A stretch of 64,000 nt of DNA, taken from the IMG/VR virus record IMGVR_UViG_3300047325_000130, positions 39,637 to 103,636 of that record; one strand, written 5' to 3'. This DNA comes from a virus. The position numbers were made by a program, and so were the translations under genes. Positions 3,094-39,672 of this stretch are shown here, piece by piece; positions within the stretch are counted from its first letter, which is position 1; each line of letters starts with the position of its first letter. The notes beneath the pieces were generated by a model. It ran no database searches. It worked only from the letters and a program-made list of their open reading frames with translations, and was not told the origin of the DNA.

Positions 3094-3585
3094 ATATAAA
3101 AAATATTTTCAAATAGAAAATTATACCATAAAAGATGGATTAATTTCTACTGATGATGATGTCAGATTAATCAAGAAAGTTGAAAAATTACCTTTTAAAT
3201 TCGGTCATATTGGTGGTTATTTTGATTGTCGTAATAATAAACTCATTTCTTTAGAGGGTGCTTCAAAATACGTTGGCGGCAGTTTTTCTTGCGCTTATAA
3301 TAAACTCACTTCTTTAGAAGGAGCTCCGCAATCAGTTGGTGTTATGATAATAAACTCACTTCTTTAGAAGGAGCTCCGCAATCAGTTGGTGGCAGTTTTT
3401 ATCTTACTTGGTCAGAAAATTTACCATTACTAAGATTGATAATATATCAAACTGTACAAACATTCAATAGTCAAGTAGATAAAATTATAGGAAAATATTG
3501 TAATCATAAACCATTAAAAGAAGCCATATTATTATGTCAGAAAGAACTAATAGATAACGGCTTTATAGGGAATGCAGCATGGTAA
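3087..3585 (+). pseudogene. Frameshifted fifth LRR-like paralog
   Basis: Starts ATGGTAGATATAAAA like its siblings, loses 1 nt at ~3100, has a second deletion near 3341, and ends ...GNAAW-TAA at 3585. Confidence 0.85.
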
Positions 3586-3616: not shown

Positions 3617-4081
3617 TTATTCGCTTTTAGCGATAAGCTCTGGTTCTAATTTAGGTAAAATTTTTGTTGTATCAATTGGTATCAATCTTGCTTTTCGAGC
3701 TTCCGGTATCTCTCTTGTAAGATCAATTGTCAACAAACCATTTGTCAAACTAGCCGAAACAACATTTACATGTTGTTCTAGATAGAATGATCGTTTAAAC
3801 GATCTACCTGCAATACCTCTATACAAGATTTGTTTTGATTCTTCTTCTTTTTTCTTACCTTCTATAGTAAGACGATTTTCTTCCTGAGAAACATCAATTT
3901 CAGATTCACCAAAACCTGCAACCGCAAGCGTAAGTCTGTATTGATTTTCAGAAACTTCCTCTAAATCATAGTGAGGATATGAAGAAGTATCATATCTAAA
4001 ATTGTTTAGAGCTCGAATTGTTGGTGAGAAACCAATTGCAAAACGATGTAGGTCATCAAATAGTTCATTAAATGTAGTCAT
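3617..4081 (-). CDS. hsp20: Small heat shock protein (Hsp20/IbpA family)
   Basis: SYPHYDL, AVAGF, YRGIAGRSFKRSF, LTNGLLTIDL alpha-crystallin motifs. Confidence 0.93.
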   Translation of the reverse strand: MTTFNELFDDLHRFAIGFSPTIRALNNFRYDTSSYPHYDLEEVSENQYRLTLAVAGFGESEIDVSQEENRLTIEGKKKEEESKQILYRGIAGRSFKRSFYLEQHVNVVSASLTNGLLTIDLTREIPEARKARLIPIDTTKILPKLEPELIAKSE

Positions 4082-7965: not shown

Positions 7966-8005
7966 AATGAAAAAACATTATATCGAGCTTTAATGATAAA
8001 TAGAA

Positions 8006-8206
8006 TTGAATATGAAGGCGGCTGCAAATGCAGCATTTGGCGAGATTGCACAATTGTATGAAGATGAACAATATAAAATATTGAAGTTATCTGGCATTAA
8101 AACTACCGCTTCTGTTGGTGATGTTTCATTGTCTGATAAAGATATTGAAAAAGCTGTATATGCTCATGCCAGGTTAGAAGCTGCTAGATTAGTTGGTAGC
8201 AGATGA
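8006..8206 (+). CDS. Small hypothetical protein
   Basis: ATAAATA just upstream and a hairpin terminator downstream. Confidence 0.45.
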   Translation: MNMKAAANAAFGEIAQLYEDEQYKILKLSGIKTTASVGDVSLSDKDIEKAVYAHARLEAARLVGSR

Positions 8207-8246
8207 TATTGGTATAACTATGATCAAAACTTTTGAATTTTAAATA

Positions 8247-8277
8247 GGATAGGGATACCCATTGGGTATTCCTATCT
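8247..8277. terminator. Bidirectional terminator
   Basis: gatagggataccc-att-gggtattcctatc between convergent ORFs. Confidence 0.65.
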
Positions 8278-8281
8278 ATAG

Positions 8282-8636
8282 CTATTTTGGAAATAAATCT
8301 TCTAAGATTTCTGGAACTCGATAATTAATACTACCAAAGGCAAGAGCGATCGCTAATATTAGAGATTCTGCTTCTTGTTTGGTTAACGGACCTTTGGTAG
8401 CCGGCAATAATGCCGCACGCAAAATATCTTCAGCATACTTTGAAGCAGATATTGTAGCGTGTGCTATATCCTGAAATTTGCCGTAAGTAACTTTGTTGGC
8501 TTCGCGTTTTGCGCGTTTTACTAGTTCGGGCTCACATTCTTTACATAGGCGGGGAAAGCCTTGTCCACCTTCAAGCAAGTTGCCGGCATTGCTCGCACAT
8601 ATCGCCATTCAAAACCATGTCAGAATATTCGCCCAT
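8282..8636 (-). pseudogene. Small CxxC...CxxC protein with a 1-nt frameshift
   Basis: SD plus MGEYSDMVLNGDMCEQC from 8636 joins GNLLEGGQGFPRLCKEC if one C is removed near 8585. Confidence 0.55.
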
Positions 8637-8674
8637 TTTACTCTCCTGCCCTATATCATCTAATATCATTTCAA

Positions 8675-8707
8675 AAAGAAATAGTAGGGGTAACCCTACT
8701 ATTTCTT
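8675..8707 (-). terminator. Intrinsic terminator after nadV
   Basis: aaagaaatagtaggg-gtaa-ccctactatttcttt. Confidence 0.75.
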
Positions 8708-8716
8708 TCTTGACCG

Positions 8717-10102
8717 TTATACTTGATTAGATCTGGCTCTAACTTCTGCAAAGGTGTGGTCGACAAGCAATTCGCCGTTCTTCCAAACCGGCTGCAAGAT
8801 ATCTGCTGCACCGTTCATATCTTCGATCTTGACAGTCTCATACTTATCGTTTTTGCGGATTAATGCAAGACGACCCTTTTTGCTGGTCTTACCAGGATCA
8901 GTAATCGGGTTCTTAAAGATATCCCGCCATTCACCTTCAATACAAATTGCACTTGCCTTCTGAGCAAATCTTAGAGTATCTCGATTTACCATTTGGGTAA
9001 GTCCGCCGCCCATACCGAGAGCAAGGTTATCGGTAGAGTAGCCCGCATCGTTTAGGTTTTTTAAAATTACCGGAATGCTTTCTGCTGTAATACCATCACC
9101 TTGGATACAACGAACATGGTTAAGTACTTTGTAACCTTTCTTGTTTACAACAGATCCAAACTTGGCATCTAGTTTGGTAATAACCTCTGTCGGGACAGTA
9201 TTTGGATCGCCGGAGTCTGGACGTACAACAAGAAGTGCGCCGCTTTCAACAATCTCGGTCTTCAAACGCTCGCCCCAAATATAATCAATAGCATTCCAAA
9301 GGTCGTATGTATCAGACACACATGCTAGCAATGCACCAGGTTTTGCGAATTGATTTAGCATGTTTTTAAATGCATCAAATTCGCCGTTTCGGCCATAGCT
9401 ACTAATTGTGCTATGTTCGGAAGCTGGGATAGAAAATCCAGGCATCTCTCCGCCATAGAAGTTCATTGCGTACAACAAACCTTCAACAGTATCAGATCCC
9501 ATGAAGTTTACTAAATGTGCTGCACCACCGATTCCTGCAGACTCGCTACTGGAAACACCACGAGCACTAAAATCGTGAAGTTTGAAGGCAATCTGCCCTT
9601 CTGGATCATCACTGGTTAGCTGCAAACTTTTCATTATCGCTTGTTTGCAAGTCCAACTATTGGTTGCAACCGTAGTTGGAAACCATACTGCACGCAAAAT
9701 TGCAGTTTCCATAAAGCTCACTAACCAAGCAAATCCTGGTTCGGTATTAGTGATTTGTACTAATACATTATGACCCGGTATAATAGTACCTTCGGGTACT
9801 GCTGTAATAAGCAATGGTAGCTTACCGTTAAGACGTACTGCAATATCCATCCAGCCATCGTAGTCGAAAATACCCGGACCCATATGACTATCGACAATAA
9901 GTTTTGCTTCTTCAACGTCGGCGACCGTAATCGGTGCCATACCTTTTAAAAACATCTGCAGGCCAAAGAATACAGTGCGGTCCCATTTGCCGCCTCGACT
10001 TTCAATATAAGCGGATAGATATTCGGACTTGTTAGGGTACTGCTTGTGATGAGAATATTTGTAAGAATCTGTCTTCAGAATTGTGTTCTTTAAATTATAC
10101 AT
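8717..10102 (-). CDS. nadV: Nicotinamide phosphoribosyltransferase (NAMPT)
   Basis: TDSYKYSH, LHDFSARG, SIPASEHS, VSDTYD, RPDSGDP, QGDG, KTSKKGRL. Confidence 0.95.
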   Translation of the reverse strand: MYNLKNTILKTDSYKYSHHKQYPNKSEYLSAYIESRGGKWDRTVFFGLQMFLKGMAPITVADVEEAKLIVDSHMGPGIFDYDGWMDIAVRLNGKLPLLITAVPEGTIIPGHNVLVQITNTEPGFAWLVSFMETAILRAVWFPTTVATNSWTCKQAIMKSLQLTSDDPEGQIAFKLHDFSARGVSSSESAGIGGAAHLVNFMGSDTVEGLLYAMNFYGGEMPGFSIPASEHSTISSYGRNGEFDAFKNMLNQFAKPGALLACVSDTYDLWNAIDYIWGERLKTEIVESGALLVVRPDSGDPNTVPTEVITKLDAKFGSVVNKKGYKVLNHVRCIQGDGITAESIPVILKNLNDAGYSTDNLALGMGGGLTQMVNRDTLRFAQKASAICIEGEWRDIFKNPITDPGKTSKKGRLALIRKNDKYETVKIEDMNGAADILQPVWKNGELLVDHTFAEVRARSNQV

Positions 10103-10148
10103 TGCAAAAACTCCTTTTGCGGGTTTATCTTAAGGTCTATCCTTAAGA
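10103..10148 (-). promoter_or_regulatory. Two-hairpin translational leader of nadV
   Basis: UCUUAAGG-AUAGA-CCUUAAGA, spacer, GCAAAA-GGAGU-UUUUGC, then AAUG. Confidence 0.7.
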
Positions 10149-11240
10149 ATTTATAAAATATTTGATTATATCCATATGGTCTTCGAACATCATATCTCGA
10201 CGAACTTTATGGATAGGAAACCATTTGGCCTTTTCAGCATCATCGCCACCTTTTACGCGAACTAAGTTTACTTCGTTTGGCAGCTTGATATGAAATGCAT
10301 GAGTAATAGTTCTACCTCTGGCACTTCGATTTGGCGAATCAAACACGCATTGATTTACAATGCTTCCACGTAAAACTGGTTCGGGTAATTTAATTGCGGT
10401 TTCTTCTCGCAATTCACGCATTGCTGCATCAATAATCCATTCATCCTTATTGATAAATCCTCCGGGAAGGGCATAAAGTCCTCTGCCCGGAACAGCACGC
10501 CGCTTGATAAGTAGAATATGTCCAGACTGTTCTACCAAACAGTCAACAGTTACAAATGTTGGCGGATAAGGAGAATTAATCCACTGCCGATGATAATCGG
10601 TAATGTGTTCATACTCTTCTACAATATATTTGTATCCCTCAGTCTTCATAAACTTTGTGAGAAATTCCTTAACACCGGTTGGGATAAGTTTTTGGCAATC
10701 CTTATCACCTACATTATGTCCATCAGCGTCTTTTAACCAAAGGTCGCCAATATTGGAGAAATATGCCTGACGCATCGGCGTACTGCTGAGTCCGGTTGTA
10801 TCAGGGACTTCGATATTATCTCCCCATTGCGGGAAGAGTTTTAGGTAATAGCTAGTATGGTCTTTGCTATGTCCAATAAGAGAAATTTTTGGAAAATTAA
10901 TCTCATTTTCGCGTTGGTTGTAGATTTTATTGACCGTTTCGTCTACCACTCTTTGAACGGAAGTAATCCATCCGGTATCATCATATGCGGTATCCTCAAC
11001 TACTGCAAAATGCACACGATCAAGCTCATCACTACAAAGAGATGATTCAATCATCTTAATTCGTTCGATTGTGGAAAAAGGATTACGATGGCCTCGTGGC
11101 ATATTTGCCGAGCCGATGATAATCAATAAATTGTCTGCTTTTTCTAGTGCTCGATGTACAACGCCGAGATGACCTAAGTGAAAAATTTGAAATCTGCCCA
11201 TAAACACAGCCAGATCGATAATTTTAACTCGTTTGCTCAT
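10143..11240 (-). CDS. nadM: Bifunctional NMN adenylyltransferase / Nudix ADP-ribose pyrophosphatase (NadM-Nudix, NatV-like)
   Basis: GRFQIFHLGH, RNPFS, SST motif; Nudix box ALPGGF...AAMRELREET; RGRTITHA, GGDDA. Confidence 0.93.
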   Translation of the reverse strand: MSKRVKIIDLAVFMGRFQIFHLGHLGVVHRALEKADNLLIIIGSANMPRGHRNPFSTIERIKMIESSLCSDELDRVHFAVVEDTAYDDTGWITSVQRVVDETVNKIYNQRENEINFPKISLIGHSKDHTSYYLKLFPQWGDNIEVPDTTGLSSTPMRQAYFSNIGDLWLKDADGHNVGDKDCQKLIPTGVKEFLTKFMKTEGYKYIVEEYEHITDYHRQWINSPYPPTFVTVDCLVEQSGHILLIKRRAVPGRGLYALPGGFINKDEWIIDAAMRELREETAIKLPEPVLRGSIVNQCVFDSPNRSARGRTITHAFHIKLPNEVNLVRVKGGDDAEKAKWFPIHKVRRDMMFEDHMDIIKYFINS

Positions 11241-11299
11241 TGTAATAGTGCTCCACTATTGATGTCTAAGAAAGTCTATCTTTCTATGTTGTATTTATA
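11241..11299 (-). promoter_or_regulatory. Late promoter plus two-hairpin leader of nadM
   Basis: TATAAATA, then AGAAAG-AUAGA-CUUUCU, spacer, AAUAGU-GGAGC-ACUAUU, ACAAUG. Confidence 0.7.
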
Positions 11300-11364
11300 G
11301 TATCATGTAGCATTAAATGCAAATATAATAAAAAATTATTTTATCTGATTTGATCTGCCTCGGG

Positions 11365-11697
11365 CTATGTCAATGCGGGTTCGCGGGGAATTATGGTAAT
11401 ATCACTCCCCTTATAAGGGCCATCCAGAAGAACTGCCCTGTACCAGTTACACATACGGTCGTGAAATGTTAGAGGCATGACCCGCACCATGCATCCGTCG
11501 AGCGTGTCATATTCCGGCCCCAGCGCGAACTCTTTTCCAACATGATCTTCAGAAACGATGGGCTCTTCTGGCCACGGCAGGGTGTTGTCTAGCCGCCCGT
11601 ATTTGTCGATCATGATGTTATCTATGGCACACTTCAGGGACTGTATGATGTTCATTTGATCTATATAGCTACTAGTTAAGAAAATTCGTATGGGCAA
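11365..11697 (-). CDS. Hypothetical protein
   Basis: 110-aa ORF on the strand used by neighbouring genes. Confidence 0.45.
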   Translation of the reverse strand: MPIRIFLTSSYIDQMNIIQSLKCAIDNIMIDKYGRLDNTLPWPEEPIVSEDHVGKEFALGPEYDTLDGCMVRVMPLTFHDRMCNWYRAVLLDGPYKGSDITIIPREPALT

Positions 11698-11954
11698 AGA
11701 TCATATGCGCCTTTGCCCGGCGTCGCCTTATCATCGAAGCCTTCATGGCGTCGCCAGTTTTCGCCGCGACAAGTGATGACCATAAGCATTTCTTCCGGCC
11801 TCACCTCACGGTGGTATTCATCAAGGATTTTTGTGCAGGGTTGCGACCAGGAATACCCAATCCGAAAGCTCTTTGTGGCGGTTATCAACGTAGGGCAAAC
11901 GCCCATCCCGCGCTGCTTTTGCCAATATGTTCGCTTGTATCGCCGCGCCCGCAA
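11676..11954 (-). CDS. Hypothetical protein or fragment
   Basis: ORF on the operon strand; competing overlapping frames. Confidence 0.3.
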   Translation of the reverse strand: MRARRYKRTYWQKQRGMGVCPTLITATKSFRIGYSWSQPCTKILDEYHREVRPEEMLMVITCRGENWRRHEGFDDKATPGKGAYDLCPYEFS

Positions 11955-12023
11955 CAGTCGCAGACGTTTTCGTGTAGATAGTAATTCGTTCCCATTTTTG
12001 GCTCCGGGGGTTAAGTTGAGTGG

Positions 12024-12242
12024 TTAAGGCAGCAGCCATGAATCATCTGAACCGAGACCCATAGCAATATTTAATTCAGCTTGGATTGCTCGCTCAGCGA
12101 AACTTTCGTCATATTCTCTAGTTGTACGTTGAGGCTCTCCATTTCCACCGTGTTTGGCGTTGATGTGTTGCTTGCAGTCGTTAATTTGTTTGAAATATTT
12201 TCCGCAGCGGGGGCAGGTACAGGTTTTGTCTGTCTGGCTCAT
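12024..12242 (-). CDS. Small C2H2 zinc-finger protein
   Basis: CPRCGKYFKQINDCKQHINAKH; ATGA overlap with the upstream gene. Confidence 0.65.
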   Translation of the reverse strand: MSQTDKTCTCPRCGKYFKQINDCKQHINAKHGGNGEPQRTTREYDESFAERAIQAELNIAMGLGSDDSWLLP

Positions 12243-12487
12243 AGGTCGAGGTCTTCCAGGGTGAGGTTTGGGTGGATGGTGCGGCCAGTTTTGGTGAAGT
12301 GGGAGATTTGGTTAGGGGAATAGGTTGGGAAGCTGGGCGTCGCAGACGCATGGGCTGGAGGTGGTGGGGTGAGGAGTTTGCGGAGTGTGGCCTCCGCTGT
12401 GTCGCGTTTGAGGGAAAGTTCTCGGCCGGATGGGAGGGTTACTACCAGCTCGCCTTGGAGGCCGAGGGAAACGAGGAGGGCAGTCAT
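12239..12487 (-). CDS. Hypothetical protein
   Basis: AGGAG SD before ATG; stop overlaps the next start. Confidence 0.6.
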   Translation of the reverse strand: MTALLVSLGLQGELVVTLPSGRELSLKRDTAEATLRKLLTPPPPAHASATPSFPTYSPNQISHFTKTGRTIHPNLTLEDLDL

Positions 12488-12553
12488 TGGGGTTCTCCTG
12501 GTTGATGGTCAAGGAGGTTTTGGAGGAGGTTGGCGATATCGAGGGCGGTGACA

Positions 12554-12883
12554 TTATCTAAATAAAAAATAATTGTTTAATAGCCCATTGATATTGTCGG
12601 CACCTGCGTTATTAGCACTATGTACTTTAAATGAAAAATTATCAGGCATGCTGTTTGTATCAAGGTCAAGATTAACAAGGTACTTAGCAAAATCAAATCC
12701 GCTTGGAACATGACCATTTAAATCTTCGCCCAAATCATGATCAAACGAAACTTCAATTGGCCAACCGCGAACAGATATCAATGCCACTGCTTCGTTCATA
12801 GACCTGCATACTACCCAATTGATGTCATTTGGATATGTCCATTTTGGATCACGAATATCGTCAAGAAATAAACGGTAAGTCAT
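12554..12883 (-). CDS. Cyclic-phosphate-processing receiver-like (cREC) domain protein
   Basis: LFLDDIRDP, SFDHDLG, SGFDFAKYL, VHSAN; start at MTYRL after AGGAG. Confidence 0.7.
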   Translation of the reverse strand: MTYRLFLDDIRDPKWTYPNDINWVVCRSMNEAVALISVRGWPIEVSFDHDLGEDLNGHVPSGFDFAKYLVNLDLDTNSMPDNFSFKVHSANNAGADNINGLLNNYFLFR

Positions 12884-12884
12884 A

Positions 12885-13004
12885 TTATCTCCTTTTAGTT
12901 TTGCCTTGCAATACAACTTTTGCTACAGTAATTACTATAGACAACGTTGCTAATCCTGCTCCAATATATGCATAATTAAGAAGTTCTTGAATTGCCGCCG
13001 CCAT
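12885..13004 (-). CDS. 39-aa single-pass membrane peptide (not in the ORF track)
   Basis: AAAGGAG SD; MAAAIQELLNYAYIGAGLATLSIVITVAKVVLQGKTKRR. Confidence 0.55.
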   Translation of the reverse strand: MAAAIQELLNYAYIGAGLATLSIVITVAKVVLQGKTKRR

Positions 13005-14522: not shown

Positions 14523-14807
14523 CTACAACTGCTTTTTAGGTTCGTATGCTATTGCAAGCTTTCCGGATTTTGTGCGTTCTGTTCCATAACCAATGATTTC
14601 GCCGGTATTACCGCCGATGCGAATTATAACATTGGTATCGGCATGTGCAACGCTAATTACTTGCGTTTGTCCGGTAATATACGTTCTATTCCCGCTAGCA
14701 GTATCAAACTCACGAATTGCCATCGCAACTTTTTTGCCAAAAGTTGGATCTCTCTCGATCTCATCGAGGCGATCCAATAGAATAACTAAAGATGCATTAA
14801 AACCCAT
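14523..14807 (-). CDS. Hypothetical protein
   Basis: AGGAG SD; 94 aa. Confidence 0.6.
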   Translation of the reverse strand: MGFNASLVILLDRLDEIERDPTFGKKVAMAIREFDTASGNRTYITGQTQVISVAHADTNVIIRIGGNTGEIIGYGTERTKSGKLAIAYEPKKQL

Positions 14808-39621: not shown

Positions 39622-39672
39622 AATTGTAAATTTATATCCTAATACGTCATAATAAAATAAAAAGAAGAGAGT

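Follow-up and report, generated by a model that had tools for sequence, protein, structure and literature searches.

The 64,000-nucleotide stretch of viral DNA analysed here (the window) covers positions 39,637 to 103,636 of the IMG/VR virus record IMGVR_UViG_3300047325_000130, a contig of 103,636 bp with a CheckV completeness of 26% that is a fragment of a jumbo phage. On its minus strand lies a two-gene operon for the salvage of nicotinamide adenine dinucleotide (NAD), and each of the two genes is preceded by an RNA leader made up of two hairpins, H1 and H2, which is the subject of this report. The first gene, nadM-Nudix (10143-11240), encodes a bifunctional nicotinamide mononucleotide (NMN) adenylyltransferase / ADP-ribose pyrophosphatase of 365 amino acids (aa) with the Pfam domains CTP_transf_like and NUDIX. 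Its homologues run into the thousands and are named by their sources as bifunctional NMN adenylyltransferase/nudix hydrolase, the closest relatives of the window protein (P0002, P0003 and P0058) sharing 68-79% identity with it. The second gene, nadV (8717-10102), encodes a nicotinamide phosphoribosyltransferase of 461 aa with the Pfam domains NAPRTase and NAMPT_N and matches annotated phage nadV genes. DNA of the locus is present in six sequencing runs, all of them from moss metagenomes.

In the nadM leader H1 (11269-11285, minus strand) consists of a 6-bp stem, AGAAAG/CUUUCU, with a G-C closing pair and the pentaloop AUAGA. The linker UAGACAUC joins it to H2 (11244-11260, minus strand), AAUAGU-GGAGC-ACUAUU, which carries the Shine-Dalgarno sequence GGAG in its loop and is followed by ACA and the AUG at 11238-11240. 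The nadV leader has the same arrangement, with an 8-bp H1 stem (UCUUAAGG/CCUUAAGA; 10128-10148, minus strand) closed by G-C around the pentaloop AUAGA, the linker UAAACCC and an H2 (10104-10120, minus strand) of GCAAAA-GGAGU-UUUUGC, again with the Shine-Dalgarno sequence in the loop, then a single A and the AUG at 10100-10102. The UAA stop codon of nadM (10143-10145) falls within the 5' arm of the nadV-leader H1. The end of H2 is thus separated from the AUG by 3 nt in the nadM leader and 1 nt in the nadV leader, and the end of H1 by 28 nt and 25 nt respectively. RNAfold reproduces both hairpin pairs exactly, at -13.2 kcal/mol (z -3.7) for the nadV leader and -8.7 kcal/mol (z -1.9) for the nadM leader. 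The leaders of both genes had been quoted in a first-pass annotation made from the sequence of the window, and we confirmed them as quoted.

It is the hairpin context, and not the bare word, that gives this element its specificity. GATAGAC as such is not enriched in the window (5 occurrences versus 4.5 expected), whereas ATAGA-looped hairpins with 6 bp or more occur only at the two leader sites in the whole 103,636-bp record. A covariance model, R1, was built from 100 non-redundant leaders (alignment A2) and scores the nadV site (10100-10151) at 44 bits and the nadM site (11238-11290) at 37 bits, with the next match in the record at 19 bits. R1 was also run on ten bacterial genomes of 3.6-7 Mb, with 150 prefilter candidates scored per genome and genes examined at located matches only; these included Pseudoalteromonas luteoviolacea, Hahella, an Acetobacteraceae metagenome-assembled genome (MAG), Neptuniibacter, Halioxenophilus, Microbulbifer, Teredinibacter, Pleionea, a Methylococcales MAG and a Moraxellaceae genome. 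The matches at E<=1 that were located adjoin or overlap nadM or nadV, and the single match in the Moraxellaceae genome lies on a contig unmatched to any NAD gene. The R1 and hairpin scans thus bear out the first-pass annotation in its view that a two-hairpin element is common to both NAD-salvage genes, as a structured and gene-specific RNA, and neither this genome nor the bacterial genomes tested gave any GAUAGAC hairpin before an unrelated gene. A dispersed repeat or genome-wide phage regulatory cassette, such as the PeSLs of T4-type phages, was considered and rejected, since the 103.6 kb contain just two copies, each at an NAD-salvage gene.

The leader is widespread. Loci were retrieved through a NadM alignment (A1; 80 phage and 80 bacterial loci) and a NadV alignment (A3; 80 more phage loci), and in dozens of these a simple hairpin scan showed the two-hairpin layout ahead of nadM and nadV. 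R1 gave 132, 86 and 117 matches across the retrieved loci and, at the E-value limits used, 335/335 were on the strand of the gene. The leader abuts the gene start in 52/69 phage NadM genes and 60/80 bacterial NadM genes sampled, with wrongly assigned start codons accounting for some of the misses, and it stands upstream of 43 nadV genes in the 80 nadV-centred phage loci. Its carriers include Alpha- and Gammaproteobacteria, at least one cyanobacterium and many phage lineages. Among cultured phages Synechococcus phage B23, Roseobacter phage DSS3P8 and Xanthomonas phage LucasX bear the leader on both genes, and Synechococcus phage BUCT-ZZ01 has a G-AAAGA-C form on nadM. The first-pass annotation had suggested that the element could link NAD rebuilding to the depletion of NAD by host defences. 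A specific tie of this kind was not supported, as chromosomal nadM-nadV operons of free-living Proteobacteria, and of at least one cyanobacterium, bear the leader too, and for this reason we describe it as a general control of NAD salvage that travels with the cassette.

Both helices covary heavily across the phage and bacterial leaders, in agreement with the earlier observation from the two window copies that the stems differ in sequence yet pair. In a MAFFT alignment, for which pairing at H1 pairs 1-5 but not in H2 had been required when sequences were selected, H1 was 97% paired and H2 69%, compared with 30-50% when the partners were slid. In alignments fitted to the model, which lean towards the model and whose slid controls retain relatedness, phage leaders were paired at 93% in H1 and 91% in H2 against 33-48% in the slid controls, and bacterial leaders at 93% and 66%, the slid controls staying at 33-50% overall. 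Double-sided changes occurred at 13/13 pairs, and at one stem position G-U or U-G pairs made up about 35%. Taken with the complete strand bias, these wobble pairs place the structure in RNA and not in duplex DNA.

Within the family the H1 stem measures 5-11 bp and may have any sequence, with stem positions 2-7 taking all six pair types. Its tip is G-AUAGA-C in 79% of 233 aligned members, with rarer forms G-AAAGA-C, G-ACAGA-C, C-AGAGA-G, C-AGUGA-G, A-AUAGA-U and G-AUAUA-C, and G-GUAGA-C and G-GCAGA-C were further noticed by eye; the rare changes of the closing pair are compensated. On these alignments the conserved core is the closing pair plus NNAGA. Two possible partners for the H1 loop were tried and rejected, namely a codon or anticodon reading AGA (no conserved complement, and the AGUGA variants lack AGA) and kissing with H2 (no conserved complement). 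The end of H1 lies mostly 23-29 nt from the AUG, and the linker has few G residues in its middle part, with CAA and UUAAC enriched. A conserved UA(A/G)AC at the start of the spacer, read earlier from the two window copies, is true of the window but fails in the family, where 9/125 non-redundant leaders have it versus 7.4 expected from shuffles. Phage nadV linkers often read (GG)CAAUUUAACUUUA, containing UUAACUUUA, which we take to be a word of the T7 gene 10 translational enhancer, and have a 5' flank of AAGUCC (L073:3504-3557, L041:3987-4039, L024:3743-3792, L059:1628-1675); both flanks are constant, in contrast to the covarying stem that they enclose.

H2 usually has a pentaloop of GGAGU, GGAUU or GGGGU closed by A-U and ends within -3 to +3 nt of the AUG. 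At about -4.5 to -5 kcal/mol it is weak, and as folded it is predicted to present the Shine-Dalgarno sequence in its loop, not to bury it. This geometry, pointed out in the first-pass annotation, is present in both window copies and is usual in the family, with some bacterial nadV leaders having a Shine-Dalgarno sequence that straddles the 5' arm of H2. Weak H2-like hairpins are found at a few further genes of this phage, which is AT-rich, and this marks H1 as the specific part of the leader. Hairpins of 6-9 bp with a Shine-Dalgarno sequence in the loop at the start codon itself, with no H1, were seen at the gene starts at window positions 14807 (minus strand) and 58428 (plus strand).

We then considered what might read the leader. 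One clade of NadM proteins (SH-like 97) has a nadM leader with a C-G-closed tip in 10/10 members, the loop being AGAGA, AGUGA, AUAGA or AAAGA, and the nadV leader of the same clade is also C-G-closed wherever it is readable (6 genomes), whereas nearly all genomes outside the clade have a G-C closing pair in both leaders. This concerted change of the tip suggests a shared reader with a shifted preference. In an even sample of 151 Gammaproteobacteria the leader was present in two, both with a nadM-Nudix/nadV operon. No leader was found in four Gammaproteobacteria with NadV but no detected NadM-Nudix (three of the four rechecked with filters off on the region upstream of nadV), in one Gammaproteobacterium with divergent and unlinked NadM-Nudix and NadV (upstream of either gene, filters off) or in a complete 193-kb phage with NadV and without NadM-Nudix. 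Among the leader-bearing genomes tested none was shown to be without NadM-Nudix or NadV, and the two always co-occur. The data fit a reader encoded by the cassette and lean slightly towards NadM-Nudix; a host protein of one particular lineage is less plausible in this role, given the very wide host range.

To the structure, conservation, strandedness, position and gene specificity that are directly observed we add a model to which we would give about an even chance, namely that the leader is a translational operator read by a protein encoded in the cassette. As the element lies on the ribosome-binding site, translation is the likely level of control, and to this extent the shared translational control element proposed in the first-pass annotation is upheld. 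The leader would act in cis, as RNA, on the initiation of translation of the NAD-salvage genes, gene by gene. H1 would serve as the recognition module, with a free stem and a fixed tip (the closing pair plus NNAGA), and the G-poor, CAA-rich linker of fairly fixed length would set it about 23-29 nt upstream of the AUG, while H2 would hold the Shine-Dalgarno GGAG in its pentaloop and end at the start codon. A trans-acting protein co-inherited with the cassette would bind the tip of H1 and, by way of the fixed spacing, block or trap the 30S subunit at the adjacent H2 and AUG, so that the direction of control would be repression. Our favoured candidate is NadM-Nudix, whose binding would probably depend on a ligand, and the outcome would be a feedback limitation of two enzymes that consume phosphoribosyl pyrophosphate (PRPP) and ATP. 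A fixed terminal loop on a free stem, without conserved internal loops or junctions, is how a protein-bound operator is usually built.

A number of observations weigh against this model. The whole genome of KVP40, reportedly a phage whose NAD-salvage pathway has been studied experimentally, gave no R1 match and is that of a NadM-Nudix phage without the leader, and no R1 match was found at the nadM loci of RsoM2USA, phiN3, phiRSL1 and Citrobacter phage Ci1. The leader also stands before an SPFH/Band-7 gene and before small phage open reading frames (ORFs), genes unrelated to nadM and nadV. As NadM-Nudix and NadV always occur together in the leader-bearing genomes tested, phyletic patterns cannot separate them as reader, and the switch to a C-G tip is a single evolutionary event; common descent of a single mobile cassette would account equally well for the co-occurrence and the C-G clade. 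A metabolite sensor is likewise compatible with the very wide host range, and a weak H2 that shows the Shine-Dalgarno sequence in its loop means that the leader could equally aid translation. Lastly, no RNA-type run is on record among the six runs that contain the locus.

The metabolite sensor would take the form of a minimal riboswitch, in which the RNA itself binds NAD+, NMN, nicotinamide, ADP-ribose or PRPP and docking of the H1 tip, linker and H2 alters access to the Shine-Dalgarno sequence and the AUG. We consider it unlikely, and think no better of the broader claim that the leader is a new and exceptionally small riboswitch class for an NAD-pathway metabolite, common to bacteria and phages. 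The strict association with one pathway over distant hosts and phages, with no single host protein required, is what such a sensor would lead one to expect; the leader's place on the ribosome-binding site and its fixed spacing suit a riboswitch, the layout recalls guanidine-II with its loop-only conservation, and the presence of the leader before genes besides nadM and nadV speaks in the same direction. However, only about 5-7 nucleotides are conserved, all of them in the terminal pentaloop, with no conserved internal loop, junction or pseudoknot partner. The H1 loop has no conserved complement downstream, and no alternative pairing of the H1 and H2 arms was evident in leaders read by eye, which was not a systematic test. 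In addition, the concerted change of the tip in one phage clade is easier to reach through the drifting specificity of a protein than through a fixed ligand pocket. Were the riboswitch real, phages would adjust the rebuilding of NAD to the state of NAD in the cell they infect, with no protein acting as sensor.

Somewhat more doubtful still is a constitutive expression element, in which H1 shields the mRNA or marks where it is processed, being 5'-terminal for nadM and intercistronic for nadV, H2 and the CAA-rich linker make up a strong ribosome-binding site presented in a loop, and the reader is a factor common to all hosts, for example the ribosome, protein S1 or an RNase. A generic stabiliser or enhancer needs neither an invariant loop nor restriction to two genes in a 104-kb record, its restriction to the nadM-nadV locus in the bacterial genomes tested would be unexpected, and a universal reader leaves the concerted tip change of the clade unexplained. 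This is set against the placing of H1 about 6 nt past a promoter-like TATAAATA or TAAATA box in many phage nadM leaders, hence 5'-terminal, the weak H2 with its Shine-Dalgarno sequence in the loop, the linkers rich in CAA and UUAAC, several of which in nadV contain UUAACUUUA, the T7 gene 10 enhancer word, and the similar Shine-Dalgarno-presenting hairpins at a few other genes of the phage. A site at the DNA level, whether the operator of a dimeric transcription factor such as NrtR or else a cruciform or repeat element, appears very improbable, and the strand bias and wobble pairs go most of the way to refuting it. As DNA, the hairpins are inverted repeats, and in Synechocystis NrtR represses nadM-nadV by binding a DNA operator, ADP-ribose being the effector (PMC2330246). 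Yet the stems of the leader are free to vary and have no conserved half-sites, the frequent G-U pairs would be A-C mismatches on the opposite strand, all 335 matches are on the coding strand, the conserved letters lie in an unpaired loop, and one of the two copies overlaps the 3' end of the nadM coding sequence, inside the operon.

Depletion of NAD is a major anti-phage strategy. The pathway formed by NadV and NadM-Nudix (NARP2) is a phage counter-measure to NAD depletion that overproduces NAD+ and consumes PRPP (bioRxiv 10.1101/2024.02.11.579819), and this overproduction and the drain on PRPP give a reason for the feedback control proposed here. A dedicated, conserved control RNA on the NARP2 genes would reveal how the cost is kept in check, and should NadM-Nudix prove to be the reader, it would offer a new example of sequence-specific translational repression by a metabolic enzyme. 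The cultured carriers make the question of the reader directly testable.

The leader also flags genes of unknown function as candidates for co-regulation with the pathway. In several Gammaproteobacteria an SPFH/Band-7 gene downstream of nadV has its own copy of the leader (L111:5158-6039, L123:5079-6022, L158:4554-5573, L161:5024-5999), and from this arrangement the membrane-scaffold SPFH protein seems to be co-regulated with NAD salvage. In some phages small ORFs of about 67-155 aa without a Pfam match, adjoining nadM or nadV, bear the leader (L038:1599-1973, L050:2127-2498, L064:2084-2410, L068:2094-2423, L245 with a start at 3818 and L224 with a start at 3572). Families among them are marked by the motifs GEDPNCD..GG.HY (117-125 aa), C.WNH.D.CGW (108-110 aa) and YYD.D.HSGGY (117-118 aa). 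By virtue of the leader these ORFs are candidate accessory members of the pathway. The small leader-bearing families had no significant match in the present record (best tblastn E 0.03), and their products were rejected as a universal reader, since they lack a significant match here and occur in at most 9/160 loci.

Upstream of the nadM leader a TATAAATA box (11292-11299, minus strand) that is T4-late-promoter-like or -10-like ends 6 nt before H1. Many phage nadM leaders (L031, L028 and L026, as well as the window copy) have an exact copy of TATAAATA, the T4 late-promoter word, 4-6 nt before H1, and many have a TAAATA-type box in that place; at this distance H1 would form the extreme 5' end of a late transcript. 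In a pattern search of the window TATAAATA was not over-represented (7 copies versus 13.6 expected), and 3/7 copies precede a start codon with a Shine-Dalgarno sequence. Because the word is unenriched, its role here as the nadM promoter, which would put the mRNA 5' end at the foot of H1, is only a suggestion. At the other end of the operon, directly 3' of the nadV stop, a stem-loop followed by a U run (8671-8713, minus strand) folds in RNAfold at -23.1 kcal/mol (z -6.2) and is a probable intrinsic terminator of the two genes; a simple terminator scanner missed it, counting only four T past the stem.

Directly upstream of the nadM promoter region is a GC-rich island (window 11300-12600; 48-54% GC versus 36% for the record) with several small minus-strand ORFs of 72-110 aa without Pfam matches, which looks like foreign or recently acquired DNA. 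Just upstream of the island a minus-strand gene (12554-12916) encodes a 120-aa protein with a cREC_REC domain (cyclic-phosphate processing receiver domain, PF20274, E 1e-19).

Comparison with known RNA families and published systems indicates that the leader, real, specific and widespread as it is, is an RNA element found in neither Rfam nor the papers searched. A cmscan of window 8000-13000 against Rfam release 15 (4227 families) at E<=10 returned only two chance-level matches, to unrelated families. The papers searched in full text contain no description of a nadM/nadV leader, and the NARP paper is silent on any RNA element. Conserved internal loops or a pseudoknot characterise the NAD+-I and NAD+-II riboswitches, the second of which acts at the ribosome-binding site. 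The leader is like both in being a cis-regulatory leader of NAD-metabolism genes, but differs in that only its terminal pentaloop is conserved and in that its targets are the salvage genes nadV and nadM. The earlier remark that it resembles neither riboswitch agrees with the absence of any Rfam match at E<=10. Membership of NAD+-I (the nadA motif, with tandem bulged-stem domains) was rejected for want of a covariance-model match at that limit, and membership of NAD+-II (the pnuC motif, whose pseudoknot covers the Shine-Dalgarno sequence) on the same ground and for the lack of a conserved internal loop or pseudoknot partner in alignments A2, A4 and A5. Beside these two the leader would be a third RNA-level regulator of NAD metabolism. 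In guanidine-II (mini-ykkC) two like ACGR tetraloops kiss. The leader shares with it two small hairpins with free stems and conserved loops, a variable linker and a second hairpin at the Shine-Dalgarno sequence, but its loops differ from one another (NNAGA and GGAGU) and are non-complementary, and the genes are unrelated. With window loops of AUAGA and GGAGC or GGAGU, not ACGR, and no Rfam match, the leader was not assigned to this class.

On the same genes NrtR provides control through DNA, with operators on nadM-nadV and prs-nadV operons and, in Synechocystis, repression of nadM-nadV with ADP-ribose as the effector (PMC2330246). The two systems share their target genes, control in both presumably follows the status of the NAD pathway, and NrtR is related to the Nudix domain of NadM. 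NrtR however recognises a sequence-conserved DNA palindrome and acts on transcription, whereas the leader conserves structure, is strand-specific, admits G-U pairs and is repeated before each cistron. An NrtR operator was rejected, with stem positions 2-7 taking any pair type, G-U pairs at up to about 35% and 335/335 matches on the strand of the gene. The leader is an RNA-level counterpart of NrtR control on the same genes and not a member of the NrtR system.

Translational operators that are read by an enzyme or other protein include the E. coli thrS operator with ThrRS, the operators of phage T4 genes 43 and 32, and the targets of RegA. Like the thrS and T4 operators the leader offers a small hairpin with a sequence-specific loop immediately upstream of or overlapping the Shine-Dalgarno sequence, works gene by gene and occurs in phages and bacteria, with feedback at the level of the enzyme, which is here proposed. 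Unlike them it serves two enzymes and a few other genes, is not confined to one lineage but conserved over bacterial classes and many phage lineages, and has a dissimilar sequence and loop. By analogy, then, the nadM/nadV leader would appear to work most like enzyme-read translational operators such as those of thrS and T4 gene 43.

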